A model generated the notes under the pieces. That model did no database searches. It worked only from the letters and a program-made list of their open reading frames with translations, and had not been told where the DNA came from. A stretch of 32,769 bases of DNA from Jimgerdemannia flammicorona (lineage: Eukaryota): contig RBNJ01000335.1 of NCBI GenBank assembly GCA_003990765.1, positions 1 to 32,769 on the forward strand. Direction: 5' to 3'. Shown here piece after piece: positions 484-32,318 of this stretch (the stretch's first letter is position 1; each line of letters opens with the position of its first letter). The position numbers were made by a program, and so were the translations under genes.

Positions 484-514
484 ATTGAGTAGACATTGTA
501 GAAGAGATCTCAAC

Positions 515-2407: not shown

Positions 2408-2488
2408 GTTATTAGTTGTCAGATACCAAAAACGTTGTAAAAAGTGTTGTCTGAGTCTTGTGTCACCCGAATGTTACAGGTGAAAGAT

Positions 2489-5639: not shown

Positions 5640-5849
5640 TCCTTTGGCTTCCCCTGCAATGGCTCCAATGGTGATAGGGATAGTGTTCTTGGCCCACACA
5701 TTGTCTTCTGGTCTGTCATCCACCAGGTTAATTCATGGATTGAGTCTGGGATCATTTCCATCTTCGGATTCTTCTTCCTCTTCTGTAGTAGACTCCTCAC
5801 TGCTGACATATTCTTCTTGGATAGTGACCTTCTTTTTCTTCTTTGATTG

Positions 5850-6344
5850 CTTATAGCTGGTCACCTTAACTCTATACTTCTTGCCTCGGTAGTCAAACTT
5901 GAGTACTTATTGGCCGATATCAACAACTGCATTCATTTCCTTCATCCAGTTGGTGCCAAGAATCATGTCATAGGTGACAGCTTCGGTGACAACAGCTTTG
6001 GGGATGGAGAACTGAATGTGTCCGAGAGAGATGGTGATATTTTGTACTTCTCCAAGGGGTTGAGTTCAGGCTCCATCTGCTACTATGATGCTGAGGTTGG
6101 ATGGTCCATCAATGGGCCATTGGAGGGTGTCCAAGAATCGTTTGGCAATGACACAGACAGCTGCTCCTGTATCTATGAGGATTTTTGCTTTTTGTCCTCC
6201 AATGTCTCTATGTAGGTAAGTGCTGACATGTCTTTCAGCTGCTTGGACAGGGATGGAGGCTAGTTCTTGCTGTGGGATTGGAACTCGGCCAGTTCTAGAC
6301 CTGGTGGTTCTCAGCAATTTATTTCGGACTCCAGCTGGTGTCAA
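5850..6344 (-). pseudogene. Gypsy aspartic protease
   Basis: KAKILIDTGAAVCVI (DTG active site), with a downstream YDMILGTNWM flap-like motif near 5940-5970. Confidence 0.9.
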
Positions 6345-8100: not shown

Positions 8101-8281
8101 TCTGGTTGGGATCCTTCTGATGCTGGATAGTTGGCAAGTCTTGAGGTGATTACTTCTCTTCCTGTCCAAATGCTAGTGATGACTGGTTCTCCTGTAGTAG
8201 CAGAGGTTGGTGTTGTATCAAATATATCCAGTTTGACTGTGGGTTCTTGTGAGTTGAAAAGTCACGTCGATTTTGAAATCT

Positions 8282-10824: not shown

Positions 10825-12745
10825 ACCTTTCTATAGTATAATTCAGGTTATATAAACTTCTAACAATACTTTAAATATCATTTTTGGAGAAAAGGTAATA
10901 ATAATATAGCAACTAATGAGTATTCTAAGGAGTGTATAGAGCAGGGCAGCTCTAGTATATTTGACTAGTAATATATAAAAAGAAGTCATAGATTGAAGAA
11001 GAGCTGGCTGGATACTCTTACTGATGGATAAGAAGATAAATGAGAGGGAATCAGCAGACAGGGGTCTGGGAGAATAGGCTTTACTTATAAGATCAAGATA
11101 GGGTATCTGGTGACTGAACTAGAGAACTGGCTACAGAAGAGCAAGAAGAAGGAGAAGGCTGCAGAGTCTGATAGAGAGATCCATAGTAGTAGTAGTGATA
11201 GAGCTGGGGGAGTGGAGACTGGAGAGAGTAAGACTGCTAATAGAGGAGAAACTGCTAATCTAGAAAAAAAATCCAGATATGATAGCTGATAGTGGGGCTG
11301 AGCTAGGGGAGAGGTATGAGGCCTATGTACCTGACTGATAGTATAATGGATTTGATGGTAATATTGTTACTTAAGAAGTCAGTATCTGAATTTACTATCA
11401 CTTTATGCTTCTAAGACTTAGTAGTTATAATAAAAATGGTTCTGAGTCTTCTGGCTCAAGAGATGAAAGAAGCAGCTTTAGTGAAGTTTTTGAAGAGACT
11501 GGAAGAAGTAGAGGTGGGCTTTGAGGAAGAGGAGTTAATGTTAAGAGTATTAGAGAAAGGAGTAGTAGTAGGAGAGATGATAATTCCTATAACTTGGTAT
11601 CTATACTGAGACCCCAGAGTAGTGCAAATGATAGTAGTAAATGTATCTATAGTAAAAAAGGAGGTGGCTAGGAGGGCTGATTGTGGACATTATTAAGGAG
11701 TATAGTAATGTGGTAGATGTTGGCTTCTGAGTCTGAGAAGGGACTGAGTTCAGGACTGATAATATAGATATTCAGATTAGACTAGCAGATAAGGAGAATA
11801 CTGAGAAAGAAAGAGATTGACCAGTGGTACTAAAGTAAAGACTAGTGGAGTATAAAGTCTCAAGAGTGAAGAAGATACCAGAAGAGAAGGAGGACTTGCT
11901 GAAGGTGTTGGAGGATCTGGCTAGAGCTATAGAGAAGAGAAGGCTGGTCTGGAGAGAGTTTGAGACTAGGACAGTAGTTGAGATAGTAAATGGCAGAAGA
12001 GTGTAACTAGATAAGGCTATATGAGAGAGAGTACAAGAGAGATAATATTAGAAGGACCTGTTGGTAAATCTGAGAGAGAGGGCAGAGGGAGATATTACTG
12101 TAGTTAGTGGTAAATTGAGGGCAAGTGTTTGAGCAGGGAAAAAGAGAGGGACTCTTACAGTAACTCTGAAGAAGAGGGAAAGCTCCAAGCAGAGTATAGT
12201 GGTCAAGGATATGATGATAGCAGAGAAGGCCCAAGTACAGTATAGAGTACCCATGGAAGGAGGGAAAACTGATGAGCTGTAGAATATACTAGAAGAGGAC
12301 TAGGATGAGTCAGTAAGGATGAATACAGAGGGGGGTCTGGGAGTAGAGAGGCAGGAGGTGGCTCTAGGTATTGATAAGATCATAGAGGAGGAGAAGTAGC
12401 TGTGGAAGGTATTGACAAATATTACAGCAGATAAGTTGAGTAAGGTAGATTTTAGAGTAATTAGTAGTGACACTAGAGTAAGATCCTATAAGAAGAGGAG
12501 ATGGTACAGAAGCTTTGTAATAAACTATTAATGGGTCTGTTGAAGATAGAGAAATATGAGGTAGATGATATCAGAGAGATAGTACTTCTAACCATTATAA
12601 ATGAGTAGATAGTATATCTGTAGAGATCTAGAAAGAAGTTAGAGAAGTAGTAAGTGGTATATGAGGACTACTGGTCTGACATAGAGGTAGTAGATAGTAT
12701 AGACTATTAGAAGATCTTGGAAACACTTGATGCTTGAAGTATCAG
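10825..12745 (+). mobile_element. Older, heavily mutated copy of the same LINE family (5'UTR and ORF1), 3'-truncated
   Basis: Colinear with the reverse complement of 2488 to about 590. The 5'UTR AACAATACTTTAAATATCATTTTTGG matches GACAACACTTTTTACAACGTTTTTGG. Positions 11765-11960 match IDVRVRLAGRENTGKSRDWP...EDLLEVLE. It ends at the ILGALDAR-equivalent near 12740. Confidence 0.85.
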
Positions 12746-13654
12746 AATAAATGATTGGAGAATTTGAGTTTCCACAGGGAGCAACATCATTGGGTACCAT
12801 ATTGGGATACTACCAAGTACTACATACTATTCAGGTTGATGAGCATTTCCTATTTGCAAATATCATTTTTGTCAAAAGTTATTATTACTAATCTTAATAC
12901 TTCCTTTGCCTTTAGCATATTGTTGATAGTGGTACTATTAAGTATCAGTCTGCAATACAGCCTAATACCAGTCAGATTAAATTAGAAAAGATGAGAATGA
13001 CCAAACAAATGTTCCATAGTCCAATGAAAGTACCAAGTTGGAAATTTGCAGATTCAACCATTTGATTGATTATTATATAAAATTAAATAAATATCTGGAT
13101 ATATTTTATTATACTAGAACAGGTTTTTATTTTGCTACAACATAATAGAGTATTGTCAGTAGATTGTAAATCAATCCATATATAATAAATATAGTATTAC
13201 ATACTCTCAAATAAGAAAGCTGCACTAATCGAACCCTTCTCCCTCTAAATAGTGCGCAAATATATTGGTATTACTAATAGCCAGGATAAAAAGAACTAAA
13301 TAAGACTGCAATTATTATCTCATTAAAATAGGAATAGATGAAACTCTCTCTCTCATTGCTTCATCGCACTTTGCATGTATCTCTTACGGTTTCTCTGTCT
13401 ATGACATCAATATAATCTGTGGCTTAGACTCATCACATGATCAAAAAGGTGCAATTCTGTTGTTTGCACTTTATATTGTGGCTTTGCATATAGATGGTGA
13501 TTTCTCATGATCGCATGATCGTGTGACTGCATTATGCAAGCTGGTGGCTTGTCTGTCCAGACTCGTAGGATGAGACTGCTATTCCTCTGCCCCATGTGAC
13601 TAGAATTACAAAATACGTAAGCGGGCGTATATACCTCTTCTGCGAATACTCTGA

Positions 13655-15778
13655 ATGCATACGCCAGATCTACCAGCAGCAGCATTTACTATACGCGCCA
13701 ACAGCCACATACTTATTCTGTGACGGGACAGGCTATACTGACTATTCTGCACTGATACGGATCCCCGCATTCAGAGATTTATTGGTAACCAGTTCGTAGA
13801 TTCTTTCGAACTGCCTCCTGAGCTCCCGACAATCTTTGCCACACTTGAATGCCTGGTCTCGCCGGGTGAGGGCAGCATAGGTGCAATTATCACACAGAGT
13901 GGAAACACACCAGTGGAAGTTTTAGATGTCGAGGATTATGCTTCCAAGCATCAATGTGACTGGTGCGAGGTCTGCGAGAATGATCTCAATTGTCTACGTC
14001 CAGGGGAATGTCTCAATGACATCGTTATTAATGAATATATAAGCAGGTATGTGTGCTGGGTGCAATATTATTACTAGAGTTAAATCCAGCAATTCTTATT
14101 GTATTCTATGTCTACCAGCATTCCACAGAAATCCACACCTGTTACCATATTCAATACCTTTTTTTGCGTGCTTTGGAGAAAGGATCCTGCCAAAGTCATT
14201 GGGAAATTCGATCCATACAGCAACAGATTCTCTCTCATTCCAGTATATGAGGGGTAAGTATTTGTTCGGATGTTTTATCATGGTGGACAATGATATATCC
14301 TCACTGCCTCACAGTTATCACTGGTTTCTAGTAGTCCTTTGCAATATGGACTTGTGGGTCGACAGCTCTGAGGTCAAGGATTCCTCACAAAGGTTTTGTT
14401 TTTTTTTTTTTTTTTTTTCTGTATATATGTGAATGATCGATGTTTATTCATTTAACTGCTGGTACATGTATACAGGCCATTCGTCACAGTCTTGGACTCC
14501 CTGGAGGGTTGCTGCCAGCAGGAGAACATCAAGATAATTGTGGAATACCTGACAATAGAGGCTAAATGCAGAATCAGCACTCCACATACACCTGAACCAA
14601 GGATTGTCACAGCGAAGGTATGATGGGATATCAATTTTGTCAGGGGGGGGAAAGATACTAGTGTACAGATTCCAATTAAGACATCTGACCATTTTAGGTC
14701 CCTCAGCAAAAAAACGCATCTGACTGTGGGGTCTTTATGTTGAAATTTGCAAAAACATTCCTCTCCGATCCAGAGCACTATTGCTGAGTTTTATATGTAA
14801 ATATATTTTAACTGGATATGATGCTGTTCTTGCATAATAGAGTCCTGATTCTATTTTGTCTGATACATAGGAAAATACAGACATTGCTATATAGGAGGAT
14901 GAAGAACCAGCCATCTCTGACATGCGTGTCCATATTCAGGAGGTGATTCAAAGACGATATGACATGATGCCAAGCAATGAACCCGCCGCATCCGAACCCG
15001 CTACCGTACCGGCAGACCCCACTGATTCGAGGGTTATAGAGACCAGATCTAGAAAAGGAAAGGAGAAGGCAATGCCTGAAGTGGTGATAAGCCCCCCTGT
15101 TAAATGACCTGCCGGTGGATATGTAGAGAGTAGACCAGCCAAACACACCAAAACCAAGAAGTCGGCAGTGAATACAGTTGGAGATACAGACCCTAAGACG
15201 GTAGGCAGGCATACTGTATTCTGGTATTTGGACAGGGTTTCCAAGATGTTAAAATTTCTGTATGATTATTTTAGGTTGAGGCCTTCTGGAAAATGATCAA
15301 CAGGGCCAGACGCCGGGCAGGGGCTAGCTTTGCTGAGGATTCCACATTGTCCACTTCATCTCTTCCATGCAATGCACTCGAGACCCTCGTATAAAGGGCT
15401 ACCTTGAGCGACACCAATGTACAAATTGTGAATAATATAAACCTGATATGCTATCTCAACCTTGGCTGTGAAATCAACTCCATGGCACTGACAATGGGAG
15501 ATGACATACCATTTCAAACCAAAGCCACAAGACTTGTGGACAAAATTGCTGCCATTCCTGGGATAAAGGACCAAGGGGTTGCGAATAATATGCTCACGTG
15601 AGCAAAGTAGGTATATGCCCTCTTCAGGGACATCCCAAACAATACGATCAAGCACATCAACGGGTTCTCGGTGAAGGATGCGACACATAACTGGCCATAT
15701 GAAATTCAGGTAGCGATTAGTACAGAGAAACAACCATTGAAGTCTGTCGATTCATTTCCTTATTGGCTAGACCAGTAA
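13655..15778 (+). pseudogene. Ulp1/SENP-family (C48) SUMO/Ubl protease with a C-terminal helical domain, multi-exon, copy A
   Basis: DLNCLRPGECLNDIVINEYI (13982-14040), HWFLVVLCN (about 14320), VLDSL (about 14490) and VPQQKNASDCGVF (about 14700-14737) give the His-Asp-Cys triad and oxyanion Gln. GT-AG introns and several TGA/TAG stops. Start is approximate. Confidence 0.85.
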
Positions 15779-16048
15779 TAAAGTTCTGCTACATCTGGCT
15801 AAAAATCAAATGCGGAAAAATAGGCCAAATAAAGTAGTGACATAATATCAGAAAATAGAATGACATAACAGCAGAAAATGGAGTGATGCAATATGGCTCG
15901 TGACCCCAGAATGGTCACAGGATCTGCAGTCAATAAAATAAATATACAAGCCCCCAATCTGTTTTCACAACTCCTCTGTGAATATCCAAGCACATATACA
16001 GGGCTCTTTTGTTGTTTATACTGTTTTCCAAAGTCTTGTATGTTTTTA

Positions 16049-17298
16049 TTATTTAGCCATAGAGGAGACTGCTATAGTAATATCTTCAACTTCATTACAG
16101 GAAAGCTTATATAATAAGGATATATGGATCCCTCTTATAGCTAGAATTTCACATTCAGTAAGAGACTTTAAGATAGTATAAATGATGGTTGATCTCTGTA
16201 CATGCGCTCAGATATTCACTGTTCTTGAAAGACCAGCTTCTAAATGATAACGAATTGCAAACTCAGCTGTACACCCCTTTTTACCAGTAAACCCCACCTG
16301 GTCCAGCTCTTGATTGATCTGTTCAATACGGTCACCCATCCAGTACCTAATAAGATATTCATAGGCCTTGCTCTGTGCATGATTTTGTTTACATTGCGAT
16401 AGCATCTGCAGCATATTGCTAAGGTTTGTTGCTGCAGTAATAGAGCCTATCGGTAGGAGGGTGGGGTCGAACTTTGGATCTCGGACGAGAGTTTGAGCAT
16501 TAGCAATTATAGCCAAAAACCCATCATAGTCAAATGTTCTCTGTTGGGTAGCTACAATAATAAAATATAATTTTTATTATATTTCTATAAAGGAGAACTT
16601 GCAGTCTGTGAGAGTGAGATATATATATCATACCTTCATCATCTTCAGAGTCACTGATCACCTTATCCTTTCCATCACCCTTGTCTATCTTTGGGTTGCC
16701 ACTACTGCCTTTCGGTTTACTGGCCTTTTTTTTGATTTTGTCATTGGCAGACTCGGGTGTTGGAGGTGGGGATATGTTTATAGACACCGGCACTAGGGGG
16801 GGGGGTCGTCACTGGCACTGGCAGCTCCTCGGGGCCCGATGCAGCAAGTGCCTTGTGGTGCCTGTCTCCATCTTCATCACTCTCACGACCTCACTTGTTA
16901 GAGGGAATCCCGTCATCCAACACAATACCACCAAAGAGAGGCTCTAGATTACTGTTGGGTAGTAGCTCTGATGATATTGGATCTTCATCAAAGATGAAGA
17001 GGGAGGCTGGAGACAATGCTCCAGGTGGCATTTCTGGTATCGCCAGCAGGGCAGTGGTAATGTCAGTGAAGAGGGGGTCAGGATCATCTGCGGCAGACAT
17101 AGCTATATCAAATGGTTCGGAATTGTATTCAAGCTCTTTTGCCAGCAAATGTATTGCTGACAGAAGGTCGGGAAGCTAGCCCATTGCTACAGCAATCCAC
17201 AGGGCACTTTCTGTGATTGTGTATAATTGTGAATAGGAGTATATGGGGGGTTCATCAGGTGAGAAGGATTCAGTGGGCAGTTCAAATAGAATATTCAT
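16049..17298 (-). pseudogene. Unknown protein: acidic/Pro-rich linker plus C-terminal helical domain; 1 intron (about 16551-16633)
   Basis: ATG 17298 (MNILFELPTES) is in frame with ORF 16891-17148. A frameshift falls in the G-run near 16800. The last exon ...YLIRYWMGDRI...NI*AHVQRSTIIYTILKSL...AK* reads through a TGA. Confidence 0.6.
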
Positions 17299-17410
17299 CT
17301 TGGCAATAATGGATTAACCAGATAATTATGGTACTCAGCTTTTATTATGAGTTTTCTTGTCAGCTGATCAAATTAAAATAGAAGGTTTTGATTGTATGGC
17401 ATGAAATGCC

Positions 17411-17612
17411 TGGCCAATGAGCTGTCATTTAGCATATCCTTTTCATTGAAAGGGATATGCTAAATGTGATCTCATTGGTCCAATAAATATCAGGTGCCAC
17501 CAATGAGCTGTCATCTAGCATTGGTTTCATTGGCCAGACCAAATATTCGAAGTCACTTAGTAGGTTTTTGAGCAAAAAGTGTGTTTGCTCCTATATACAT
17601 TAACTATACTAA
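17411..17612. repeat. Palindromic non-coding module, copy 1 (partial)
   Basis: High identity to about 30787-31000. 41-bp hairpin at 17426-17466 (19/20 pairs), paired CCAATGAG/CATTGG boxes, a GAGCAAA-n7-TTTGCTC mini-hairpin and CTATATA. Confidence 0.9.
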
Positions 17613-18018: not shown

Positions 18019-20013
18019 TCATACACTTGCTCATGTAGGGAGAATAGTTCAAAGTATGTTTATTTTTCGAATTGTGCCAATTTGTATATTCACTATTTTA
18101 TTCTAACCGGAAGCTTTATAGTTACAGCCTGAACAACCTGGCTGCTCTACCACATGCTGTTTGTGTGGTGGTGGAGAACAGCTCTTTGAAACATGCAATG
18201 CTACTGCTTGCTACAATATTGTCTATATTAGTGATTGTGTGCACCCCTGTCTGCCAGGTGTACCTGAAAACGAATGGACCTGTCCAACACATAGTGGAGT
18301 AGGGGCCCTGATGTATGATGCCAATATGGATATAGATGTCCAGATGCTCATCCATCCTGAATCTGCCTTTACATGTGGTATTGAATCTGCTGCCAGCTAT
18401 ACATTTTTTGGCTATTGTCGTGGGCAGGTATCCGCTCGGGATTTGTATTTCCAGGACGAGGAGTCATTGGCCCAAGCAGTCAACAAGCTCTGCTGGCATT
18501 CCAATGCAGTCAAATGGCTCATAGTTGGCACATTTATCAGTGATGATGGTGATTACCAGCTTTGGGTGGATGGATGGTATCCATTGTATAACGTTCTGTA
18601 ATTTATTCTAAATGGACATGATGATATTAGAATCATTCTTGCAACTCCCTTCTACAAGCAAATGATCGCAGAGCAGATCGGGCTACTGTTGTCACAGATA
18701 AGTAAGGTTGTTGAAAATGGTATTGCACTTCTGCTCACTCATCCTGGTATCGAGCCTGCACATCTTGTATATCCACTTCTACAAGGTATTGAAAGGGGTG
18801 CAATTATGCACCGTGATTACCCTGAAACAATACATGAACTGCTTGGTAGAGATTCAGGAACTCCTGCATGGTTTGTCGGACAAGATATAGGATGGTATAT
18901 CAATTCCCATGTAATGCAGTATACTAAACACTCAGGTCACCAGAGATTTTTGGGAAAAATATGTGCATATTTTAGTTCTGGAGAGCTTGTCCAGTTACAT
19001 TGTTCCAAAAAGTAGTAAGATTACTATATAAATGGGCTCTACATCTCTCTCTCTCTCTCTGTTTCATTTGTATAATAATATTATGTTATTCTGAAATATG
19101 GCTACAGTCCAGTGGACTGCTGAGGAATATACTTGTATTAAGGCAAATCTCAACAAAGTCCTTCATCCTGCATTGATAGACTATAAAGGTATACTATTTG
19201 TAACAACTATAATTTGAGATATATCCTTCTCTGAGCTATATTATTGATCTTAGGCGACTATCCCTATATATCTGGAGATGTGGCCATTAATGCCCTCAAT
19301 GATATATTTGGGTTCAATGGTTGGTAGTGCGAACCACAGAATGTTACTGAGGAGTTTGTATGTCATTTTGGTTAGTCATTATATATATAATATATTATAT
19401 GCATGAATTCCATTATAACTGGCTGGGTATACAATATAGATCACAGTAGATGAGCAGGGGACATATTTGGTTGGAATCCAGATACATAGAGTCCTATGAT
19501 TGAAGGATGGAATCTTCCGTACAGTATGTATTCAATGATACTAGTACATCTTTTGAACATAAATATATGCAGATTTCTCAACTATTACATCTGCCACAAG
19601 ATTTCAGATTTGGAGATGCCTATCATCAGAAGACCCAGAGTGCTGCCACAGACAAGACATATAAGGGTACTATGACAGATTGTATTAAGCAGACAGCCCA
19701 TCAGCTAGGCTGGGTTTTCAACTGTATCTATGATAGATGATATGTGAAATTTCTCAAAGACCCGCACTCAGTGGTACCGAGACATAGTAATAATATTGAT
19801 GGCTGTTATCTAACTCATCGCTAGCATATTAATGGCTTTATTATCATATTACAGGTACTTTTCCCACCTAAGCAACAGTATTGTTATTCGTGGATAACAA
19901 CTGCTCTGCTTGACACTGCCGTCCGTGGAGATGAGCACAAGATCTCCACTGGAGGTGCAAAGAGAGATGCTGACGATGGTTTGTTAGTATGTGGGTTTAA
20001 GCGTGGTAAATAA
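18019..20013 (+). pseudogene. Multi-exon gene with an N-terminal PHD-finger-like domain; remainder unknown; boundaries approximate
   Basis: CCLCGGGEQLFETCNATACYNIVYISDCVHPCLPGVPENEWTCPTH (18155-18292) follows the PHD pattern including P..W.CP. The expected His is Tyr (CAT>TAT). Downstream exons include 18662-19015 and 19507-19740, ending GFKRGK*. Confidence 0.65.
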
Positions 20014-20209
20014 TAACATACAATAAAATTGGAAAAGCCTATAGTAGAGCTAGAAAGTTGTATTCATTTGGCTTCTATAGCTCTTAAATTATACTACAGG
20101 AAAAATATGTCTGAAAAAAATAAATAAAATATCAAATGGTTATAGCCTGTCAATAATGTATATATAAGAGTTACCTTTCCATATTATAAAATCCAACATT
20201 TGGAATATT

Positions 20210-23200
20210 ATGAAGCGCATATACCCAATAGAAGAGATAGGCGAATCCTCTAGACCAATCCCACAAAGACCCTGTACAATTGATCTTCAGGTGCACAGAA
20301 CATCGCTAATCGGTATGTGTGTTAAATGGAGGTTGTGAATATAATCACAAAATATACTAAAACAAGTTACTTTTGATATAGAATACAAGAGTCTAGAAAA
20401 GGCCAAGGAGGCAGCTGCACAAGTTTTGGTCAGGTGTCCTGATACCAGATTGGCAAGCTTCCTGCTAGTGCTCGAGACAGTGGCAACTGATACTGTTCAG
20501 CTATGTTCAAGCAGATCTGCGACAACTATATTCTGAACTATATTGAGTATGGGGGACTCTATCCAAATATTATGGAATACTGCTTTGGCAGTGTGCCATA
20601 TCCATTAATGCTTGATATGGAGTGGTTCAATTCCATAGATACACTATAGAAAGATCTGCTAGACACCATCAGTAGTTTCATCGACTCATTGGTTAATTTT
20701 ATCGCACTTTCTCTGTACCACGAAGCAGACTACATTGCTCGAGATAATGTTTGTATTGAAGAGGCTTGTACAGATGATGGTCGCAAAGCATTATTCCATA
20801 TAAAGATCCATAAGCTTGTGTTCACCTGTATGGAGCAGGATATGCGGTTTTTCGTCTTCTACTTCTACTCATAGCTATATGCCAACCGTGGCCACCTCCC
20901 TGCCATATTTTTCTGCCAGACACCAGAGGTTCAGACGAAGATCAAGGCATATGATGGTGGAGATGATTCCGAGTCAGTGGCAGAGTTTTTACAGGAGATA
21001 CATATAAGTTGAGGCAGAAGAACAATGGCGAGTTAATGACAGATACAAGTTTGAGTCATCTGGTTGTGATTGTAGCATTCACAGTCATGGTCGAGCCTTC
21101 CGCTGCTGTGGCTCTTGCAAACCCAATAAACTTGGTGAAAAGCCGCAATTCCTTCATCTATGCATGGTCACTGGCTGGTGGAACAAATAGAAGCTATCTT
21201 CCAGAAGTCTAGAATCAGATATCATACATACAGTTGAGCCTGACAAGCAGCACCATCGTGCATGGGCCCGTGAATCGCTATTGATACCACCATCTCAGTC
21301 CTATATACCGATTGTTGTGCCCTCACCAGAAGGTTTGAGAATTGTGGGCAAGCTGCAACCTGATGATGATGATGATGTTGGTGTATGGCACTGGGATTTG
21401 GACACTTCACTATACCCCTGGCTAAAGATACAGATTCGATGGTAATCCCAAGCACATGCATCATACTCAAATATACTACTGGTCGACGAATATAATAGTG
21501 GGGGTGGTATTTGCATGCCATCCATTGTACTGTTCGAAGAAGATACTATTGTGGTGTTCAAGAAGCATGACAGACAGTAGTACAATGTGTCTGGCAAAAC
21601 ATGGTGTAGTGTAGACGAGAGTGAAGCAGTCGAGCAAGAGAAGCAGAAGGTACTGTATTACCGACTGGATTCACAGACGCGGCACTGGCACCAGCATCTG
21701 GACATATGACTACAAGCACTGCAGCATATAGAGATGAGTGGCCTTGGGCAAGATGATCAGGGACAGCCTATAGACTATGCTGCAAAGCAAGCCAAATGTG
21801 ATGAGCTCAAAGAGCAGGATCGTGGCAAAATATATATCCAAGGACTAGATGACTGAGCTAGAGCCCTGATGTTCACAGTATCGGATACAGTCCTGGATCC
21901 CAGTTTCATGCTTGTGGATGCCACAGGAATGATTACTCAACTTGGAGGCATAACTGAGAAGATATGTGTCTTCTGCCCAAAGCATGAGATTGATGCAAGT
22001 ACTCAGATGTATACTCCATCAGTCTTTGTGGATATTGACCCTGCAGGCAGATGCTTTCTGTCATACTCTGCATGTGGTGGACCTGGCCGAAGTATTCGAG
22101 AAACTCTGCATGATGATACAGATAATAATGACTGGGAGGATGTGAAGAAACAGTTGGGTGAGGATATCGTGCAAATAATTAACAAGCCCCATCTCACCTA
22201 CGAGGATCTCTTGTGGATGAAGCCCACTGCAATTCCGCCACCTGATGGTGATCTGGTTCAGATTCCTTATATTGATTCAACTGCTGGCCCAATGGTATAT
22301 GTTGGTGTCTCTCCCATGGGGTCAGGCAAAACAACACTTCTGCAGTAGCTGATGACAGTCTTTCTCAGTCTGCTCATGCAGATGCTGGGTCTCGGAATCT
22401 ACCAGCAGCCATCGGTCCTCAGTGTGTCACCTCAGATCCTTCTAACACAGTTCACTGGGCTGGCACTTGGTCTACCAGACTATACACAGTATGACAGGTT
22501 ACGTCATTGTGCACAGGTACCAGAAGGTGAGCGAGTGTCATGTAAGGAGCTGCTGTGCAGGCAAAACCAGTTGTCTATCTGCATAAACTCACTAAAGCAT
22601 CTTGCAGAGTATGCTGACAATGGAGGCGGGTACAATGTCTTCATTCTTGATGAGTTTGCAACAAACGCACTATCATTGATATCCAAACTGATGCTACTAC
22701 ATGCAAAGGAGACATTTAGAGTGCTTACTGCACTTATGCAGAAGGCATGCGTAGTTATTCTACTAGCAGCCGATGGAGATATGCCCATGGTGAGGATGCT
22801 GCTACCCTTTGTGGACTGGGATGTACCAAAAAATGTAGCAATTACTATCAACAAAGGTGGAATTGGTGGTGTCTGTGGCCATGATCTGTTCATATCAGAT
22901 GATCATACTGCAGTGTGTCAGGTGCTAAAGAAGTACATCCAGGAGGGTAAGTCAGTATATATACCAACAAACCAGAACAATTATGCCGAGTGACTGGTTG
23001 AGGTCTGCAAGCTTATGGGGCTGGCAGATGATGAGATAATTCTGATCAACCGGGTATCACCTTCTGCACTGTGTGAGGAGCTGATCAGCAATCCAGCAAG
23101 ACGGCTTGGATTTACCAATGGTGGCCAGCTAGATTCAACACATCTACATATTTGTGTGCTTATAGCTACTCCAAAGTTCAATGTGGGCTTTAGTATTCCA

Positions 23201-24556
23201 AAAGGACTTTTTCATATTACCATTGCATTCTACTTCATTGAACCATCAACAGTGCCAGAAAATCTGCAACATATTGCATGTGTGCGTGGTGTGATCGAAA
23301 ATACAATTATTGTCTGCTATCAGTCTTGCCCCTACTCTGGTAAGTCTATGAGTACTCTTGGTGAGCAGGCCTGGCTCAGTCACCAGGTTGCAAAATATGA
23401 GGAGATGCTGGCAGAGGCTGAGCAGCGCTGTGAGGAGGTGCGCGATAGCAGCCTATGTTCATATGCAATCACACACAGCATTTGAACAAAGCAGGCAGAG
23501 TGGGATGCTGCTGGTATGTTCACAGAGGCTGCAGCAAGGGCTACTGGGACACAGTCGATACTGCTACACAGCTGGGTCTGCTCAAAGGGCAGTGGTGAAA
23601 TTAGAGCCCTGCCACAGTTGATGGATGCTGAGGTCGATACCATCATATGTAGAAACATCCCAGTTAATGAGGCCAGTCTCCCAAAAATATGGCAGGAGAT
23701 GGAGGATATGTGGATCCAACAGGAAAGAAAGGAGGACTTGACACCCCTGGAAGTAGATCTCTTACAATTGTACAAGGAGCTACCTGTTCCTGCTGGACTG
23801 CTGCACAAAGCCGAGTGACAGATGTCATATATGAGGTATCTGGACAATGGATGGCATGTGATGGAGGTGCTGGCAACTGGATCGTCAGTTGTTTTGCAAA
23901 TACTGGACATTGACAAGGGAGATAAATCCTCAAAGGTATCCTTTGTCACTCCTATATATCGTGAGTACCAACAATACCAGATGTTAAATATATGGGCATC
24001 CATTGTCCTTGTAGGGATTTATGGTATACACCAAACTGTGGATGATGGATCTTTACTATTTCAATATATCTGCTATTCCAGTAGCTTGGATGATGGTAGA
24101 TTTATGATCCACCTAAAGGCAGACCTCAATAGAGTGAAGAATGCAGTTACAGATGTACTGGGTAGTTTAAAGATACTCTCTGAGGCAGGCACAGATTTCA
24201 AAGTATGGTTTGTACAAAATGATCTTCGGAAGCTGCTTGGATATTGTAGTATAGGCAATCAAAAGAAGGCCACTAAAATATTTGTAAGTATTATGTGAAA
24301 GGGGTTTCGCCAGTTACTTGGAATGGCCAATGTCAAGGTAAAAACATACAGAGATGATGTTGTGTGTATACATATTACAGGACTCAAGCATTTTGTATGG
24401 CTGGCCTGCATACGTCGAATCAGTCTCAGATGTAATCATATATTGCACATAGGACCTAATGACTATAGGACAGTAGATATATATCAGTCATCACAAGCAT
24501 TACATGATATGATTCCATCAGATTTAGACCTCTCCCAACTGCAGGGCATTGATTAG
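20210..24556 (+). pseudogene. AEP (PrimPol/UL52-like) primase, Zn-binding region and UL9-like (origin-binding protein) SF2 helicase fusion
   Basis: AEP motif I LMLDMEW (20605-20625), motif II KALFH (20785-20799) and motif III DCSIHSHGRAFRCCGSCK (21068-21121). Helicase motifs SPMGSGKTT (about 22310-22336), VLSVSP, LSICINSLKHL, YNVFILDEF (about 22650), VLIATPKFNVGFSI and LQHIACVR. Six ORF pieces from 21869 to 24556 share one frame, separated only by TAG/TGA. Predicted intron 20313-20381. Confidence 0.85.
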
Positions 24557-24597: not shown

Positions 24598-25108
24598 TCA
24601 ATTTCTTTGGTACACTCCAAAACCCAAGCCCTTCCAAAATTGTGGATGTCTCATTAACTGTATTCCTGTAAATAGAATTTCGATTGTTTAGTCATTATAT
24701 TTAAGAGGAGATCAGCCATTTATATACTACAGATACATACTCTGCTAAGGAGTAATCGTCTGGATCATCCAATACTGTGTGGGTCTTGTCTGATATCGAA
24801 TGTAATTGGGGATCAGTATTGTCAGATATTAAAGATTCTCTAACTTTTGGCATATGATGTAGTTGGCGAATAATGTGTTGATGCAGATTGGCATCTTCTT
24901 CAGATAATATCTGCTGAAGGATGCATCTGTGCATATTTCTATCTTCATCCTCAGAGGTCTCATCGATTGAAATGCTTTCATCTTCACTATAGGTTTCTTC
25001 AGTACTTGTATATGCCGAATCAGCAGCAGACTCGTCTGCTGCATCATCTATATATCGAGATTGCCGACGTGTCAGAGGTAGCTCTTTCTCACTATCAGAT
25101 GCTTCCAT
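24598..25108 (-). CDS. Small acidic protein with an SRYIDDAADES motif; probable intron at about 24667-24724
   Basis: 135-aa D/E/S-rich ORF from ATG 25108, converging tail-to-tail on the helicase gene. Confidence 0.5.
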
Positions 25109-25703
25109 TTTCCAATGATAATATTGTGCATTTAATACTCATCATATATATATCATGATTTGAAATATATAGAGCATTTTATAACTGTATGACTGATTGG
25201 AGAATAGTCTGGTACATATGGACCAGGAAGTTAGATAACTGTAATGCCCTGCACCTTATTCACCCCCACATCACCTCTTATCAATCTTGCACTGAACACA
25301 TGACTTCCCTGGTGACAACCATTTGGGTATATTGAAGATTGTGGAGCAAACATCATTCATTTTATTTTTGCAGGCTAGATATTGGCTACATTGGATCGTC
25401 TCGGGTGAGTGGCTGCTCAATGATGGGAGAGTGGGTCTGAAGGCAGTGGTTTGCCATGATTCTTCCAGTTAACAAATGGCTATTAGTGCCTATATATATG
25501 TCGATATGGGACAAAACTTTGGGATGATTCAGTATAATAATACTGTAGTGTTTAAATCATGGACAAATTTATTTTTCAGCATAAGCTGAATATGGTTGCA
25601 GATAACTACTATCATCATTGGGTTGCAGTTTATTTTATTTTATTTATACATTTATTGTTTTCCTTCATTTCACTATATATAATACATATCTACCCAGGTT
25701 TCA

Positions 25704-27763
25704 TTATCCTTTCTCAAGCCAGCATAGGAATGGATCACCATGGTCAAACATTCTATTACCAGTGGCAATCATCATATGGACCTCTGGTGGCTAGAGCTTT
25801 ATTGTGTCTTTCACCATAAAACTGTCGATCTGCTCTATGACATGGTTTGGAATGTCTCTGAATAAGGCATACACCCACTTTGTCCACCAGAACATATCAC
25901 TTGCAGCACACCGATTCTTTACCCCAGGTGCAGTTGCCATTCTGTCGATAATTGATACAGCACGGTCTTGATAGTTACGTATTTTCCTCATTGCCATCAC
26001 CATTGCATTTATCTCTCTTCCGAGTTCGAGGTAGCAAATGATGTTTGTATTGTTTGCAGTATTTACTGTGTTGTCACTCTCTATTACCTGTTTGATGAGA
26101 GACCCTAAAGTGCTATTGAGTTGGTCGACAGTCCAATATTCTTTATGTTGCTGCCCACAGCACGATGATGGGCTCGTTCGATTATATCCCAGAATGACTT
26201 CGCCTAGACAAATTATTTTGCATGTCAAAAAATGAAATTATTTTAAATTACTTGCATCCCCCATTAAAATTACATACTGTCATAGAGGCGTCTACTGTAT
26301 CTACATCCATCATCTGAGGCATGTCTACTTTGGTACATTTACAAGACCCAACCCTCGCAGAGGTGCTGGAGGGACATTTTGCCGAGATATATCCAGGGGC
26401 TCTAGCCTTGGGTACCATTCCCTGTGTTACCTTCCCCTTTCCTTTGTCCCGAACACCAATTACTATCCTTGCGGATTCTGGGGATATAGTAGTTGGCTGT
26501 GTCGATTTAAATGTAGCAGGTCGATTGACAGATTGTGATCCGCTATCTGCTGTTTTATCTGTCTGGTTGGATAGCGCCTAAATTACATCACGAATGTGGG
26601 GATGTGTGTCGGAAATAGGAGTTTCACCATTCCATGCATCGGTATTAGCATTCTCCTATATTATACATAAATATACTATAATCAGGATACTGTGTACATT
26701 CAATGGGAATAGGCAGTCATAAAACATAATTACATGCAGAATTCTACAGTAGTAGTCTGGGTCCATGAGAAATGTCCTTGCAAAATACAACAGAAAGACT
26801 CCACAATCAGAGCCATTGGTTTGCTGTGGAACCTATATAATATGAGATTATTAGTCATGGTTCTAGATATACTAATAGCTCTATGTCTCATCCCTACCTT
26901 TGCAGTAATGATCCTCACACCTCTCATACTTGATTTATATGATTCAGGCATGCCATCTATCTGATAGCGTGGCCTTTGTGCAGCGAGCATCTCCAGGTAT
27001 GCCAGAATAGGCTCGACTATTTGCAGCTGTGCAGTTATCTTCATAGAATCCAGGATCGCAATAAATGATCTGTAAATATGATTTAAAGTAGACCTATGAG
27101 TTTGGTGACTATCAATGCTTGAGAATTTTCATGTACTTCAATACCAACCTTTGCAATGGATCCTCTGCTGGAGTGATATCAAGTAAGGAATACATATTGC
27201 ATAGAACTACTAGAAACCAATAGTATCTGTAGTATTTAAAGTAGTGTGAGGTATATTGCCACATCGTCGTGCATGCCTCTCATACAATATTTTTACCCTC
27301 TGTTGACTGGGATTAGGGAATACTTGGTCTGGAAGGGATCGACCTTCCTGACAATCTTGGTGGAAGATTGCATCAGGCATGGATACAGATATGTATTGAA
27401 TATAGCAATGTGCTCGGAATATTGCTGAGAACTACACCTCCAAAAAAAACCCCCAATACCTATTTTAGATGGGTCGGAATAATCGCAGCCAAACTCAATG
27501 AATGTTTTACATCATACAGACCAGTTCATGTACTTATTTATGATGATATCATTGAGCCATTGACTAGGATCCAGACAGCTAAGGTCCTGCTGGTGAAAAC
27601 AAGGCCACTCAGGCTGATGCTTGGGCTCAAGTCACTCGATGTCTACTATCTCAATGATTGTGGCAAGACTATCAGTCAGATCTGGGCATGGGATGGATGA
27701 AAGGGGGATGCAGTCTTCAAATATCTTACAAACAAGCATGGCCTGGACATGTAGTCAAGACAT
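25704..27763 (-). pseudogene. Ulp1/SENP-family protease with a C-terminal helical domain, copy B (diverged paralog of 13655-15778)
   Basis: Manual translation gives DLSCLDPSQWLNDIIINKY (about 27530-27586), YWFLVVLCN (about 27197-27222; catalytic His>Tyr), ILDSM (about 27045) and VPQQTNGSDCGVF (about 26795-26832). The C-terminal IICYLELGREIN...VYALFRDIPN is shared with copy A. Confidence 0.85.
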
Positions 27764-27848: not shown

Positions 27849-29084
27849 TCATTGTGCTCTTTCTACTGTAATTGTGTCCCACTTAACAAACATCAATGAT
27901 GTAATATTCTGGACAAATACATGTAAAGTCACACTGGTCACTGGGGGTTCATATATAGTACCAGTAGCTGCAGTCTTGATTGTGAGGGTGCAGAGTCTGG
28001 TAAGAGTTGTAATGTTACCAGCAAGTTCAGAAGGACTGATGTGCTGAATGGTAATCTCAAGCAGCAGCAGTGCTGGAAAAATTGCCGCAATAGAAATGAT
28101 GCCAGCTGATGAAAGAGGAGCAATGTCATTCAATCTGAAGTGGGTCATATATCGATTTTGGAATCCCATGAGATAGCTGAAGAGAGTCAGATCAACCTTG
28201 CAGGAATCAATGCTGAGGTACTCAAGCTCGGTTGCACTGATAATCAGGGCTGCAAGTCCCCTAGTGGAAACATCTCCACAGTCAGCCAACTCAACCCTAC
28301 GGAGAGTTGAGCCAATATTCTGTGATACTACAGAGAGAATATCTTCACCAAGCTCATCATACTTGTGGAGTACAAGCTCGCGAAGATAGTCAATAGATAG
28401 AAGTAATCTATAGAAATATACCGAGAAGTACATGTCTCTACAGTTATAGTATGATAAACACTCAATCTGCTGGGGTATATGAGACATTTCCCAGTGTGGA
28501 AACCGACAGTCAATGAACTGTACACACTGAAGTGATTGGCATTGCTGGACAAGATGGTCAATAGAAGCATCATAACCTGAGTCAAAAAGAGCCAGTGTTT
28601 GGAGAGTGCTTGGTGGATTCAAAGAGTTACAACCTGATGAATGGGGGCTGTACTCTTGGTCTCCCCATTCAGCAAGTTCAAGTGCCTTGAGGGAGTGGCA
28701 ATTATTGAACAACATGGCTAGAATATATAGGTCAGTGTTCACAAGATAGGTCAATCACAGATTGGCAAGTAGGGGGAGGGTATTGCAGATAACACTTCTG
28801 CTGAAATCAAATGCATCTGGTAAATGGATTTCATCACATAGAGTAGCAAGATCCTCTCTGGTAGAAATGGTGTGATGGTATGAAAGCAGCCTTGGAGTGA
28901 GGTCCCTGGGATCAATATCAATTAGAGAGACCCTGCGGTAAAGCACTGCTGTTGCTTCAGCATTGAAGCTGTGACAGACTAGGGTGCAAGCATGAAGGCT
29001 TGTTCGAAGCAACTGTGCACAGTCATCATAAGGCCAGAGAGCATCATGTAGATACTCAATACTGATGTAAAGGATGTCATTCAT
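27849..29084 (-). pseudogene. F-box-like plus leucine-rich-repeat (RNI/FBXL-type) protein; one in-frame TGA at 28755-28757
   Basis: N-terminal DILYISIEYL...LHACTLVCHSF...ATAVLY, and LRR units LRRVELADCGDVSTRGL and LEYLSIDSCKV. The two ORFs abut in the same frame. Confidence 0.75.
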
Positions 29085-29583: not shown

Positions 29584-30378
29584 TTATTCTACAAGTATTT
29601 CCATAACACTGGCTGTTCTCATTACCATTCTAGCTATATCATATGCTGTTGCACCATATCTGGTCCTTGCATATATATCTGCATCCAATTCAATTATAAG
29701 AAGGGTTACCATATCTTCCATTACTTGCTCATCATATATCTTACTACCAGATGATCTAAAATGAAAATACCCAGTACCCCATGCTGCATAATGTAATGGT
29801 GTCTCTCCAAACAGCTTATCCATAATGTCAACATATACCTGAAACTCAACAACTAGTATCTTTACAAGCTGGAGATGTCCATGGTATACACAAATGTGCA
29901 ATGTGCTATGCCCTCCCATCCATGTTCTTGCATTAACATTGATGCCACCAAACTCCAGCAAAGCATGTACAGTGTCAACATGACCACCCTCACAGGTATA
30001 GTATAGTGCATTCTGGTGATTTCGTCTGGTTGTGTTAGTACACAGAAAGGATACAACTTTGTGGTGACCATTGCATGCTGCTATCTGCAGTGGCGACTTC
30101 AATGTAAAATTCTGAGTTGCAGTGCTAGCCCCATATCTACAAAGAAGACGCACAGTATCATAGCATCCATACTTCACAGCTACATAGAGTGCTGACACAG
30201 CACTATATCCAATAGCATTGATATCAGCATTGAGCTCATGTATGAGAATAATGATAATGTGAGTGGCATTTGTATGTGCAGCTATGTGTAATGGACTGTA
30301 GCATGTTGTATCAGTTGAGGAGAACTGATTTAGATAGTCACTGATGGTTTTCTCAGGAGAGAAATTCTGTTCTTCCAA
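29584..30378 (-). CDS. Ankyrin-repeat protein (true start probably upstream, toward about 30670)
   Basis: About 6-7 ankyrin repeats: SPLHIAA, SALYVAV, SPLQIAACNGH, STLHICVYHGH, GETPLHYAA, GATAYDIA. Confidence 0.9.
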   Translation of the reverse strand: MEEQNFSPEKTISDYLNQFSSTDTTCYSPLHIAAHTNATHIIIILIHELNADINAIGYSAVSALYVAVKYGCYDTVRLLCRYGASTATQNFTLKSPLQIAACNGHHKVVSFLCTNTTRRNHQNALYYTCEGGHVDTVHALLEFGGINVNARTWMGGHSTLHICVYHGHLQLVKILVVEFQVYVDIMDKLFGETPLHYAAWGTGYFHFRSSGSKIYDEQVMEDMVTLLIIELDADIYARTRYGATAYDIARMVMRTASVMEILVE

Positions 30379-30720
30379 CCATTTACATAGGATGCCATCT
30401 CTTCCATCCTCATAGAATATTGAGGGTGGAATGGCTATAGCTACATAATATTACCTATTAGTATTATCTGAGGTGGGGTCAGTGGGGGGCTTTCGATGAT
30501 ATAGATTCATTGTCTTCACAGGTGGTTGCCTGCGAAGAGGAGGAGGCAACAGAAGAGCCAGCAGGTCAGATATAGATAGGTTCTTTGATGATATCTAGCA
30601 CAGGATGTGCTGTATTTAAAGGTTCTCTGGCAATAAATTCGTGACCAGAAATGGATACCTCTAATTGACATATATTTGAATTGGCTGAATAGCCAACTAA
30701 CATACATGTAATAGTAATAT

Positions 30721-30987
30721 ATAGTATATAGGAGCAAATGTACTTTTTGCTCAAAACCCTACTAAGTGACTTCGATATTTTTGCCCAGCCAATGAGCTGT
30801 CATTTAGCGTATCCTTTTCATTGAAAGGGATACGCTAAATGTGATTTCATTGGTCCAAAAAATATCAGGTACTGCCAATGAGCTATCATCTGGCATAATG
30901 CTAAATGTGGTTTCATTGGCCGGACAAAATATTTGAAGTCACTTAGGAGGTTTTTGAGCAAAAAGTGTGTTTGCTCCTATATACTAT
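30721..30987. repeat. Palindromic non-coding module, copy 2 (complete 267-bp nested inverted repeat)
   Basis: Outer arms 30721-30782 and 30926-30987 are reverse complements with about 6 mismatches and 1 gap. Inner 41-bp hairpin at 30801-30841 and two CCAATGAG...CATTGG units. Confidence 0.92.
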
Positions 30988-31125
30988 TAACTATACTAAT
31001 ACAAACTTATTAGCTATCAGCATTATTCTATATCCACCCTAAATAACAAACCATATCTGCATACATATAAATAGCTCCCATTATTTCTTTATACTGTAGA
31101 AATATATCCATATTATTGGAGTGAA

Positions 31126-32318
31126 ATGTCTGGGCCAAGATATCATCCATATGCCAGTGTTACCCTGAGGCAGCCAGTTATCAACCCACAGAACCACCTC
31201 TCAGACTCCTTTCGAAAAACAATCCTGGGGACAGTCTTGGTGAATGGGAAAGGTACCAAAGGCCAGCTTGGCCTTGGATCTGCCATTGAGGCTGCATATC
31301 ATCTACATATTATAGAGACCCTGAACAGTGTCGGCATTGTGGATATCAGTACTGGATATAACCATTCTGCAGCCATTGATATTGAAGGCAGAGTATGTGT
31401 CTCTATTTTAGTCTCAATATTGGTTTTTGTATATATTCTTTTTTATTTTTACCTGATGTATATATCTCTATCTAGGTTTGGACATAGGAGTGCAATACCA
31501 GTGGTGCTCTTGGCCGAAATGGGGATGGATGGAAACCTGCTCTTGTTGATATGCTAAATAGTATGCGGGTGGCAGCAGTCAGTTATGGATGGGCATTTAC
31601 TCTTGCCTTGAGTGACTCTGGATGTCTCTATGCCTGGGGATCCTTTTGTGACAAAGAAGGTAAAGCAACCTGCATCACAAATACCCCACATAACCCTCTC
31701 AACCCCACATGTAATCTGGGACCAGATGAATAATTTACTGCTATTGCCACCAGTGTTTCTCATACCATGGCTCTGACTACTGAGGGACAAGTGCTTATAT
31801 TTAGACATGGTCTACAGTGTCAGCTGGGACGACATCTGGTTGCACGTTGGGCTAGGGCCTATCTTGTACCCACCTTTTTAGCACTCGGGAGAATCAGGTT
31901 GATTGCCAGTGGGTACTTTCATTCATTTGCGATAGGTGAAGATGGTACTGTATATGCATGGAGCTGCAATGACCATGAGCAGATGGGAATACCCACCCCA
32001 TCTAGAGCACCCCCTCTAGTACAAAAACCCACCAAGGTCTGTGCAATCCAGGGCAGAATTAAGCAGATTGCAGCTGGGAAATTTCACACCTATGTTCTAT
32101 ATAAGAATGGCACTGTGGCAACATTTGGGATGGCGATTGCACTGGGTATCCCATCAGTAAGATTTATTTCAACTGGGTGTAGACACTCATTAGCTCTAGT
32201 TAGTGGAGGGGATGTTTTTCAGCAGATTGGCGAATCACCCTGGGCAAAAATGAAATGTACCACATCTGCACTTGCAGTTGCCACTAGTGTTAAATTCAGC
32301 ATGGTGTTATTAAAGTAG
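31126..32318 (+). pseudogene. RCC1-repeat (beta-propeller) protein; 1 intron (about 31393-31475), frameshift/stop
   Basis: GQLGLG, ISTGYNHSAAI, VSYGWAFTLAL..SGCLYAWG, IASGYFHSFAI..DGTVYAWS, IAAGKFHT, ISTGCRHSLAL. Confidence 0.88.

Follow-up and report, generated by a model that had tools for sequence, protein, structure and literature searches.

The window analysed here, a stretch of 32,769 nucleotides that covers positions 1 to 32,769 of contig RBNJ01000335.1 of the fungus Jimgerdemannia flammicorona (assembly GCA_003990765.1, forward strand), carries at about 20.2-24.56 kb on its plus strand the remains of a large gene that joins a primase, a zinc finger and a helicase. We consider, with a probability of about 0.75, that this gene is a dead copy of a single-polypeptide replication initiator that came from a foreign replicon. 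In the protein as we reconstruct it the parts follow each other in the order PrimPol-like archaeo-eukaryotic primase (AEP), C-H-C-C zinc finger, UL9-like superfamily 2 (SF2) helicase and UL9-like C-terminal domain. The intact relatives of the gene form a rare and undescribed family that belongs to a known kind of viral and plasmid replication initiator. The copy in the window is dead, i.e. it is a fossil and not a working gene.

Under the standard code there is no long open reading frame (ORF) at the locus, and in the three-frame translations of the region a protein-like reading is broken by stops. The query for the first search (P0001) was a read-through of 21857-24556 with an X at each stop, and the window was compared by tblastn with the intact relative P0002, and also with P0003, P0042 and P0007. 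With P0002, a block of 736 bits (452/1204 identities, frame 2) joins window positions 21017-24553 to residues 250-1418, and a second block of 115 bits in frame 1 joins 20539-20964 to residues 95-241; overall, the window gene is colinear with P0002 residues 95-1418. Short N-terminal queries widened the frame 1 segment to 20506-21000, and the order of frames along the gene is thus 2, then 1 (about 20506-21000), then 2 up to the natural stop TAG at 24554-24556. This stop lies one residue short of the C-terminal ends of the homologues, and it coincides with the end coordinate, 24556, that had been given in an earlier reading of this DNA made from its letters (hereafter the sequence-only reading). 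Identity between the window copy and 10 aligned relatives ranges from 24 to 47%, with P0174 the nearest, and the base composition of the gene is the same as that of its flanks. The word 'KRIYPIEE' (20213-20236) was tried as the counterpart of an N-terminal 'KRIYQIQ' block of the family and was rejected, the colinear block being that at 20393-20461.

The sequence-only reading had called for a repair of the gene and a search for homologues, and this search turned up intact, colinear relatives: in a collection of 5.8 billion proteins, P0001 found five proteins at E<=0.001 among 8000 candidates scored, the best at E 2e-120. Full-length among these first five are P0002 (1419 residues) and P0003 (1453 residues), the latter under the source name 'Origin of replication binding protein'. 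A word-based search with the intact P0002 gave four proteins at E<=1e-5, including the query, among 2483 candidates, and P0173 (1429 residues) and P0174 (1424 residues) are further full-length members from this search. The sole named intact relative is P0007 (1447 residues), which is RUP21891.1 of Jimgerdemannia flammicorona (Mucoromycota). A HMMER profile of the helicase half, run against 1.84 billion cluster representatives, matched 302 of them at E<=0.001, 84 at 1e-10 and 26 at 1e-30, with frequent fragments among the close matches. A scan of metagenome contigs for relatives found none, and sequence searches of the PDB with the window translation and with the family profile gave nothing useful.

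The five full-length members are 1419-1453 residues long, in good agreement with the roughly 1400 residues estimated for the intact protein in the sequence-only reading, and their mutual identity is 31-53%. The fusion of primase and helicase, named beforehand as one of the points on which that reading could be refuted, occurs in a single ORF in all five, and all five keep AEP motifs I-III, the C-H-C-C finger, Walker A, Walker B and motif VI. P0003 has in addition a Cys-rich insert with several C-x2-C pairs within the helicase (residues ~905-965), which is absent from the other four full-length proteins.

The catalytic motifs of AEP enzymes are D-x-D/E (motif I), s-x-H (motif II) and h-D (motif III). 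The motif description in PMC10778844 is consistent with this definition. All three motifs, already recognised from the letters, are found in the window at the positions given in Table 1, as well as in 5/5 full-length relatives. The fold was assessed on a model of the N-terminal part of a relative, P0042, and not of the window copy; the model was built from an alignment of 7 rows and is of modest confidence (mean predicted local distance difference test, pLDDT, 55.8). In a Foldseek search of the PDB with this model the top 10 matches were all human PrimPol (E 5e-4 to 3e-3), followed in order by monkeypox virus (MPXV) E5, vaccinia virus (VACV) D5, the PrimPol of African swine fever virus (ASFV) and UL52 of herpes simplex virus (HSV). 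The VIA-align scores again put PrimPol first (Z 9.5, 215 residues aligned, root-mean-square deviation (rmsd) 6.0), with HSV UL52 at Z 7.5-8.0, MPXV E5 and VACV D5 at about 7.1-7.5, ASFV PrimPol at about 7.1 and the cellular primase small subunits (PriS) at 5.1-5.7. The low-confidence family model therefore suggests a PrimPol-like AEP fold for the N-terminus. The AEP fold and the three catalytic motifs are common to the family and to the group of human PrimPol, herpes UL52, poxvirus D5-E5 and ASFV C962R. In PrimPol itself the AEP domain is immediately followed by a zinc finger of UL52 type, and there is no helicase. In D5, E5 and C962R the fusion partner is a superfamily 3 (SF3) helicase, not an SF2 helicase, according to PDB titles and the description in PMC1594570. 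The family, in contrast, joins the AEP domain to an SF2 helicase, and its finger lies about 300 residues downstream of the AEP domain.

Two segments rich in His and Cys had been pointed out in the sequence-only reading, and they met with different fates. The one at 21965-22081 is the conserved C-H-C-C finger of the family. The other, 'KHMHH...FACHPLYC' at 21450-21533, is a spurious reading of the third frame: the homologues are aligned here in frame 2, with conserved blocks on either side, the relatives have an acidic, Cys-free linker at this place, and no Cys/His cluster is present at this position in any relative. In hhalign, the finger and helicase of the family align with the bacterial protein P0060 at E 8e-22 over about 400 columns; P0060 in turn has a weak, sub-threshold match to the DnaG-type CHC2 finger (18.7 bits, cut-off 24.9). 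The finger would thus seem to resemble those of bacterial CyRepA1-type proteins, with which it aligns, and it is not shown to be of the UL52 type.

For the helicase, the Pfam family Herpes_ori_bp (PF02399, gathering cut-off 20 bits) is above its cut-off in 3/5 of the first relatives (27.2, 23.1 and 23.2 bits) and, in another scan, in 13/21 relatives, the majority of which are distant. It is found at E<=0.01 in four of the 11 aligned members and is the sole Pfam family that matches more than one of these 11. The helicase and C-terminal domain were modelled on P0004 (11 rows, mean pLDDT 68.6, modest confidence). The four best Foldseek matches of this model were UL9, the origin-binding protein of HSV-1 (E 4e-7 to 4e-5), with BLM and WRN behind it (E 2e-4). 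VIA-align gave Z 14.4 and 13.3 against UL9, with 342 and 322 residues aligned; the best alignment pairs model residues 90-641 with UL9 residues 175-814, and the UL9 matches run into residues 536-830, ending at residues 814-830, deep in the C-terminal domain of UL9. Other SF2 proteins reached Z <=11.5 over about 145 residues (next family 147), which corresponds to a single RecA-like domain. No ordinary cellular SF2 family was assigned, neither by the profile scans of the relatives nor by the fold comparison, and the UL9-like character of the helicase, proposed in the sequence-only reading, is upheld by these results.

HSV-1 UL9, the origin-binding helicase of HSV (PMC13483431), is thus the best structural match of the family's helicase and C-terminal domain. 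Motif II departs from DEAD/DEAH in both, being DEF, DEA or DEY in the family and DEVM or DEIM in UL9 (as given in PMC13483431). The sequences themselves are far apart, with an identity of 13%; the Pfam scores of close relatives are just 23-27 bits, and the window has none. The orthoherpesvirus UL9 proteins are described as having no active primase domain, the primase part being inactivated (10.1101/2024.02.29.582850, 10.64898/2026.08.29.747986). Near the gene there are no noteworthy repeats or palindromes.

The decay of the window copy is extensive. The 12 internal stops comprise 5 TAG, 1 TAA and 6 TGA codons. The two frameshifts lie between 20461 and 20506 and between 21000 and 21011; introns were considered as the cause of these frame changes and rejected, since the gaps measure 44 and 10 nt and the aligned segments adjoin each other. 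The Cys that is the third zinc ligand, replaced by Tyr in the window, is invariant in 5/5 relatives, and so is the first Arg of motif VI, which is replaced by Cys. Two of the TGA stops, 23816 and 24296, fall in columns that hold Arg in 9/10 and 5/10 relatives, respectively. In the gene the CpG dinucleotide is found at 0.31 of its expected frequency, TpG and CpA at 1.46-1.49 and TpA at 0.86, and this pattern is the signature of methyl-CpG deamination. Classical repeat-induced point mutation was rejected as the cause of the decay, given the lack of any TpA excess (0.86) next to a deficit of CpG and a surplus of TpG/CpA. Across the whole window CpG is likewise at 0.07-0.39 of expectation, with TpG and CpA in excess, and this window-wide loss suggests a host with heavy CpG methylation in a repeat-rich region. 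Because of the 12 stops, the two frameshifts, the lost zinc ligand and the lost Arg of motif VI the window copy cannot work, and the one-protein initiator that the sequence-only reading saw in it has to be given up for this copy.

Table 1. Features of the primase-helicase gene and of its neighbours in the window.
Feature	Position	Strand	Evidence and remarks
Main body, decayed primase-zinc finger-UL9-like helicase gene	20382..24556	+	tblastn vs P0002, P0003, P0042, P0007
Possible first exon, poorly conserved leader	20210..20312	+	ATG at 20210, 34 codons + 1 base; open in frame 2
Intron-like stretch, 69 nt	20313..20381	+	GTATGT ... TACTAA ... TAG; contains in-frame stops 20336, 20342
First conserved N-terminal family block	20393..20461, frame 2	+	P0042 residues 41-63 (39% identity), P0002 residues 46-65 (30%); E 0.006, small search
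AEP primase core	20602..21124	+	Motif I (D-x-E) 20602-20625, motif II (His) 20785-20808, motif III (Asp) 21062-21124; frameshift between II and III
C-H-C-C zinc finger, third ligand Cys -> Tyr in the window	21965..22081	+	Family alignment, window translation; aligns with finger of bacterial P0060
SF2 helicase core	22310..23293	+	Walker A 22310-22336, Walker B 22634-22657, motif VI 23267-23293 (first Arg -> Cys)
Conserved C-terminal domain	23294..24553 (mapped by homology)	+	Aligned with UL9 C-terminal (origin-binding) region in fold search; many invariant columns
Internal stops, n=12	20647, 20872, 21188, 21443, 21578, 21707, 21854, 22346, 22991, 23483, 23816, 24296	+	Translation
Rad52-type strand-annealing protein relic, two frames with stops	19262..19750	+	Pfam, phmmer vs PDB
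ORF with PHD-like Cys/His cluster, 298 codons, one internal stop	18122..19015	+	PHD label by eye from Cys/His pattern
Ulp1 (Peptidase_C48) decayed gene(s), copy A	13889..16570	+	Pfam 24.8 bits (cut-off 20.7) at 14695-14778
Ulp1 decayed gene(s), copy B, inverted relative to copy A	25095..27679	-	Pfam 20.3 bits (just under cut-off) at 26835-26752

Upstream of the main body the gene may have begun with a short exon followed by an intron. The stretch at 20313-20381 is a plausible intron, as judged from its letters: it has GT-AG ends, a TACTAA branch-like word 20 nt before the TAG and a length of 69 nt that preserves the frame. With it removed, 38 residues would precede the first conserved block, where the homologues have 9-45 residues. 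A strict form of the intron pattern (GTATGT...TACTAA...YAG) matches once on each strand of the window (two matches in total) against 0.23 expected from Markov simulations; the pattern was composed after the case had been seen, so that its significance is overstated. The other strict match lies at 19970-20021 on the minus strand, within the region that separates the Rad52 relic from the primase-helicase gene and to which no gene is assigned. The relatives are called as uninterrupted ORFs, and the candidate intron is therefore not a feature of the family. The exon at 20210..20312 could possibly have encoded the leader; alternatively, an original start within 20345-20392 may have been lost. The sequence-only reading had also described the gene as adapted to nuclear expression, a suggestion for which the candidate intron would be the sole basis.

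It is instructive to compare the family with the fusions known from viruses. Proteins that join an AEP to a UL9-like helicase are listed as viral hallmark proteins (PMC1594570; 10.1101/2024.02.29.582850; 10.64898/2026.08.29.747986), and the AEP-SF2 architecture is reported for mimivirus R8, ASFV pF1055L, a subset of mriyaviruses, the malacoherpesvirus Ostreid herpesvirus 1 (OsHV-1) and SmDNAV (10.1101/2024.02.29.582850, 10.64898/2026.08.29.747986). The statement of the sequence-only reading that the architecture is known from ASFV pF1055L and other nucleocytoviricots is thus in line with these sources (together with PMC10653895). By their published description, pF1055L, R8, the SmDNAV protein, the SF2_hel protein of mriyaviruses and the OsHV-1 homologue are, like the family members, single polypeptides with an N-terminal AEP that has its catalytic motifs intact and a C-terminal UL9-like SF2 helicase (PMC1594570, PMC10653895, 10.1101/2024.02.29.582850, 10.64898/2026.08.29.747986). 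The SmDNAV protein has its primase-polymerase domain at residues 270-515 and its helicase domain at 788-1409 (10.64898/2026.08.29.747986, 10.1101/2024.02.29.582850), i.e. by this description it reaches at least residue 1409 and is similar in size to the family. The family differs from the viral fusions in its sources, which are a fungal genome and metagenome contigs with none in a recognised virus genome, and in its C-H-C-C finger, which aligns to bacterial proteins. Giant-virus insertions have been reported in early-diverging fungi, and the available text of these papers on fungal giant-virus relics mentions D5-type primase-helicases and not UL9-type ones (PMC7017919, PMC10640383, PMC13533422). 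The architecture and the likely role as replication initiator are therefore established knowledge, while the fungal-type family itself was not found in print: a literature search, with supplements outside its scope, gave no description of this family or of its association with Rad52.

Bacterial proteins of about 1000 residues (P0060, P0068 and others) align with the family across both the finger and the helicase. The NCBIfam model CyRepA1 (NF042913) matches 5/5 full-length relatives with 46-88 bits, under its curated cut-off of 200 bits, and the bacterial P0060 and P0068 with 340-360 bits. When an alignment was used as the query on prokaryote genomes, 365/428 candidate stretches were found to encode relatives of the bacterial form, mostly in Proteobacteria; a scan of prokaryote genomes with a single bacterial protein as query found none. 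AEP-like motifs can be seen by eye in the N-termini of the bacterial ~1000-residue proteins. The CyRepA1-type proteins follow the same logic as the family, with primase, finger and helicase in one initiator, and differ from it in being about 400 residues shorter and in having AEP domains that did not align with those of the family. In the literature, CyRepA1 and CyRepA2 are described as carrying the Toprim-related DUF3854 and not an AEP, and CyRepA proteins as supporting autonomous plasmid replication (PMC10079941); bacterial AEPs fused to UL9-like SF2 helicases are described by Kazlauskas et al. (PMC5862659). One bacterial locus was annotated for context, a region of Afipia clevelandensis (L008, 5986-14787) in which a phage-type integrase is found 3.3 kb away from a gene of the AEP-finger-CyRepA1 type that adjoins a HEPN/RES pair; the latter gene is probably part of an integrated mobile element. 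More distant fused proteins, P0115 and P0097, align in hhalign by the helicase only (E 5e-15 and 4e-9), and from their own sequences one might guess that they are of eukaryote-viral origin. Others (P0049, P0070, P0093) carry Toprim-type primases. Since both AEP-fused and Toprim-type relatives are found, the UL9-like helicase is joined with more than one kind of primase, depending on the replicon. The fungal-type family itself would appear to combine a PrimPol-like AEP with a finger-helicase module whose nearest counterpart is bacterial.

The nearest neighbours of the gene are also of interest. The Rad52-type relic upstream of it matches Pfam Rad52_Rad22 (PF04098) in two colinear pieces, the first at 19259-19354 (21.3 bits, cut-off 20.3) and the second at 19600-19749 (16.8 bits), and in phmmer searches of the PDB with its fragments RAD52 accounts for the first 10 of 12 matches and for 10 of 11. 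The ORF with the PHD-like cluster had no homologue at E<=0.001 among 690 candidates, and an atlas search with it gave no usable match. The two decayed Ulp1 copies bracket the PHD-like ORF, the Rad52 relic and the primase-helicase gene. In tblastx the copies are colinear, with blocks 35-66% identical in protein, and the sole match at the DNA level is 27 nt long. Both copies also share a conserved downstream block (15371-15775 vs 26114-25710, 39% identity over 135 residues). An atlas search with the conserved ORF of copy B returned low-recognition rows only, which were discarded.

A mode of action can be proposed for the intact protein. Its C-terminal domain and finger would bind the origin of its own replicon, or single-stranded DNA, the helicase would open the DNA with ATP and the primase would lay the first primers, which a polymerase from elsewhere (from the host or the element) would extend. 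The gene was most likely brought in by a foreign nuclear DNA element that replicated itself, from which the Rad52-type relic may also come, and the copy would then have been silenced and eroded, probably via CpG methylation and deamination. It is probably a relic of an undescribed fungal DNA element, and we lean, at roughly 45:30, to a virus, or an episome like one, rather than to a mobile element that is not viral. A more elaborate version of this proposal, tentative and in our view possible without being probable, is that early-diverging fungi harbour an undescribed nuclear replicon, which has left behind the decayed gene and the Rad52 relic and, perhaps, also the genes of PHD-like and Ulp1 type. 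It would be a virus or episome that had its own UL9-like primase-helicase and annealing protein and borrowed the host polymerase, and its initiator would be a chimera of a eukaryote- or virus-type PrimPol with a finger-helicase closest to those of bacterial plasmid initiators. If this were true, the five intact relatives would mark members of the group that are still living.

A number of results weigh against the reading of the gene as a foreign initiator. The read-through translation of the window has no Pfam match at E<=1, so that all family assignments come by way of the relatives. Both structure models are based on shallow alignments (7 and 11 rows; mean pLDDT 55.8 and 68.6), and with an rmsd as large as 17.6 A for the UL9 match, the likeness to UL9 holds domain by domain and not for the overall pose. 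An hhalign comparison of the family AEP with the AEP parts of P0097, P0115 and P0060 produced no alignment, and the AEP-helicase fusion may therefore have arisen more than once. No relative was found among the IMG/VR viral contigs scanned. Six-frame Pfam scans of 8.2-29.5 kb, which could miss decayed or unmodelled genes, detected no polymerase, capsid, packaging ATPase, integrase or transposase; for this reason the element of which the sequence-only reading had spoken is not delimited, and a viral origin is not shown. The Ulp1 copies are too diverged to be recent terminal repeats, and they may be either paralogues within one element or two transposons that each carry Ulp1 and are unrelated. 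Finally, the intact named relative in a fungal genome and the possible intron in the window copy would also fit a resident cellular gene. On the evidence of the window alone the gene may derive from a virus that became endogenous, from a self-replicating element that is not viral or from a cellular gene since lost.

Three other explanations have been weighed against that of a foreign initiator. The gene could be a piece of an endogenised Nucleocytoviricota genome and orthologous to ASFV pF1055L or mimivirus R8, whose domain order it shares, as it does that of the SmDNAV protein and of some mriyaviruses (as described in 10.64898/2026.08.29.747986, 10.1101/2024.02.29.582850); insertions of this kind have been reported in early-diverging fungi (PMC7017919, PMC10640383, PMC13533422), and the AEP fold is nearest to the PrimPol, herpes and pox group. 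We regard this as unlikely, given that no nucleocytoviricot marker was seen in the 21 kb around the gene and no relative was found in IMG/VR, and that the finger and helicase align better with the bacterial CyRepA1-type proteins (E 8e-22) than with P0115 (5e-15) or P0097 (4e-9). The viral region of Rhizophagus, as far as its description in PMC10640383 goes, is reported to be without the D5 and SFII helicase markers. Somewhat less probable still is that no mobile element is involved and that early-diverging fungi have a cellular gene, for example for a nuclear or organellar repair or replication-restart enzyme, of which this copy is a decayed paralogue. The annotation of the sole named intact relative, RUP21891.1, in a fungal assembly, the intron-like stretch with its yeast-type consensus, the base composition shared with the flanks and the fact that PrimPol, a cellular enzyme, is the best structural match of the N-terminus are all as one would expect of such a gene. 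Against it stand the extreme rarity and patchiness of the family, which has 5 full-length members among 5.8 billion clusters, with 31-53% mutual identity; the literature places UL9-like helicases in viruses, phages and plasmids only (PMC1594570, PMC5862659), and the copy adjoins a second replication/recombination relic, that of Rad52, amid transposon debris. A third explanation, that the gene still functions through recoding, by reassigned stops, programmed frameshifts or further introns, can draw on the fact that 10/12 internal stops are in one long frame and that the intron-like stretch removes two more upstream. It is very improbable: all three stop codons occur, and they do so inside conserved, alignable blocks and not in removable inserts, the two frameshifts are inside the AEP domain, the invariant zinc ligand and the motif VI Arg are replaced, and the neighbouring intact ORFs with ankyrin, RCC1 and leucine-rich repeats (LRR) are normal under the standard code.

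A foreign initiator in this genome would be of interest because very little is known of double-stranded DNA viruses in fungi, or of fungal DNA elements that replicate themselves; reports to date concern relics of giant viruses and the recently named Mycodnaviridae (PMC7017919, PMC10640383, PMC13533422). Primase-helicases of the UL9-like kind are described as a hallmark of virus and plasmid replication (PMC1594570), and a rare and distinct family of this kind in a fungal genome, with five full-length members of which one is from Jimgerdemannia, provides a specific probe for such elements. The combination in a single protein of a PrimPol-type primase, a UL9-like helicase with its C-terminal domain and a finger-helicase module held in common with bacterial CyRepA-type plasmid initiators also bears on the origin of herpesvirus UL9 and of pF1055L/R8. 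The window copy itself is inert and has value as a fossil alone.

Several further features of the window deserve mention. Retroelement relics flank the gene. A Ty3/gypsy-type retrotransposon occupies 2419-8261 on the minus strand (reverse transcriptase 101 bits, RNase H 110 bits, an in-frame dUTPase of 89 bits and a gag-like ORF of 456 residues). Two relics of one and the same retroelement, which resembles the non-long-terminal-repeat (non-LTR) kind and has no Pfam family, lie in opposite orientation at 1-2400 (minus strand) and ~11000-13000 (plus strand); the former is C-rich on the plus strand (GC skew about -0.55), the latter is more decayed, and similar protein blocks are seen in the six-frame read-through. 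Direct repeats at 17407-17598 and 30782-30984 were examined as possible ends of an element and rejected, each being within a small palindromic unit that resembles a miniature inverted-repeat transposable element. The two copies of this unit (17407-17598 and 30721-30987) are 88-95% identical and lie between Ulp1 copy A and the PHD-like ORF and between the ankyrin and RCC1 ORFs, respectively. The window has no tRNA genes, and no tandem repeats of note were found near the gene. Downstream, intact ORFs encode an LRR-like protein (27849-28754, minus strand, weak Pfam match) and ankyrin repeats (29584-30450, minus strand, 99 bits), and RCC1 repeats are encoded at 31075-32318 on the plus strand by two ORFs about 176 nt apart, the gap between them being probably an intron. 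The LRR, ankyrin and RCC1 ORFs are presumably host genes.

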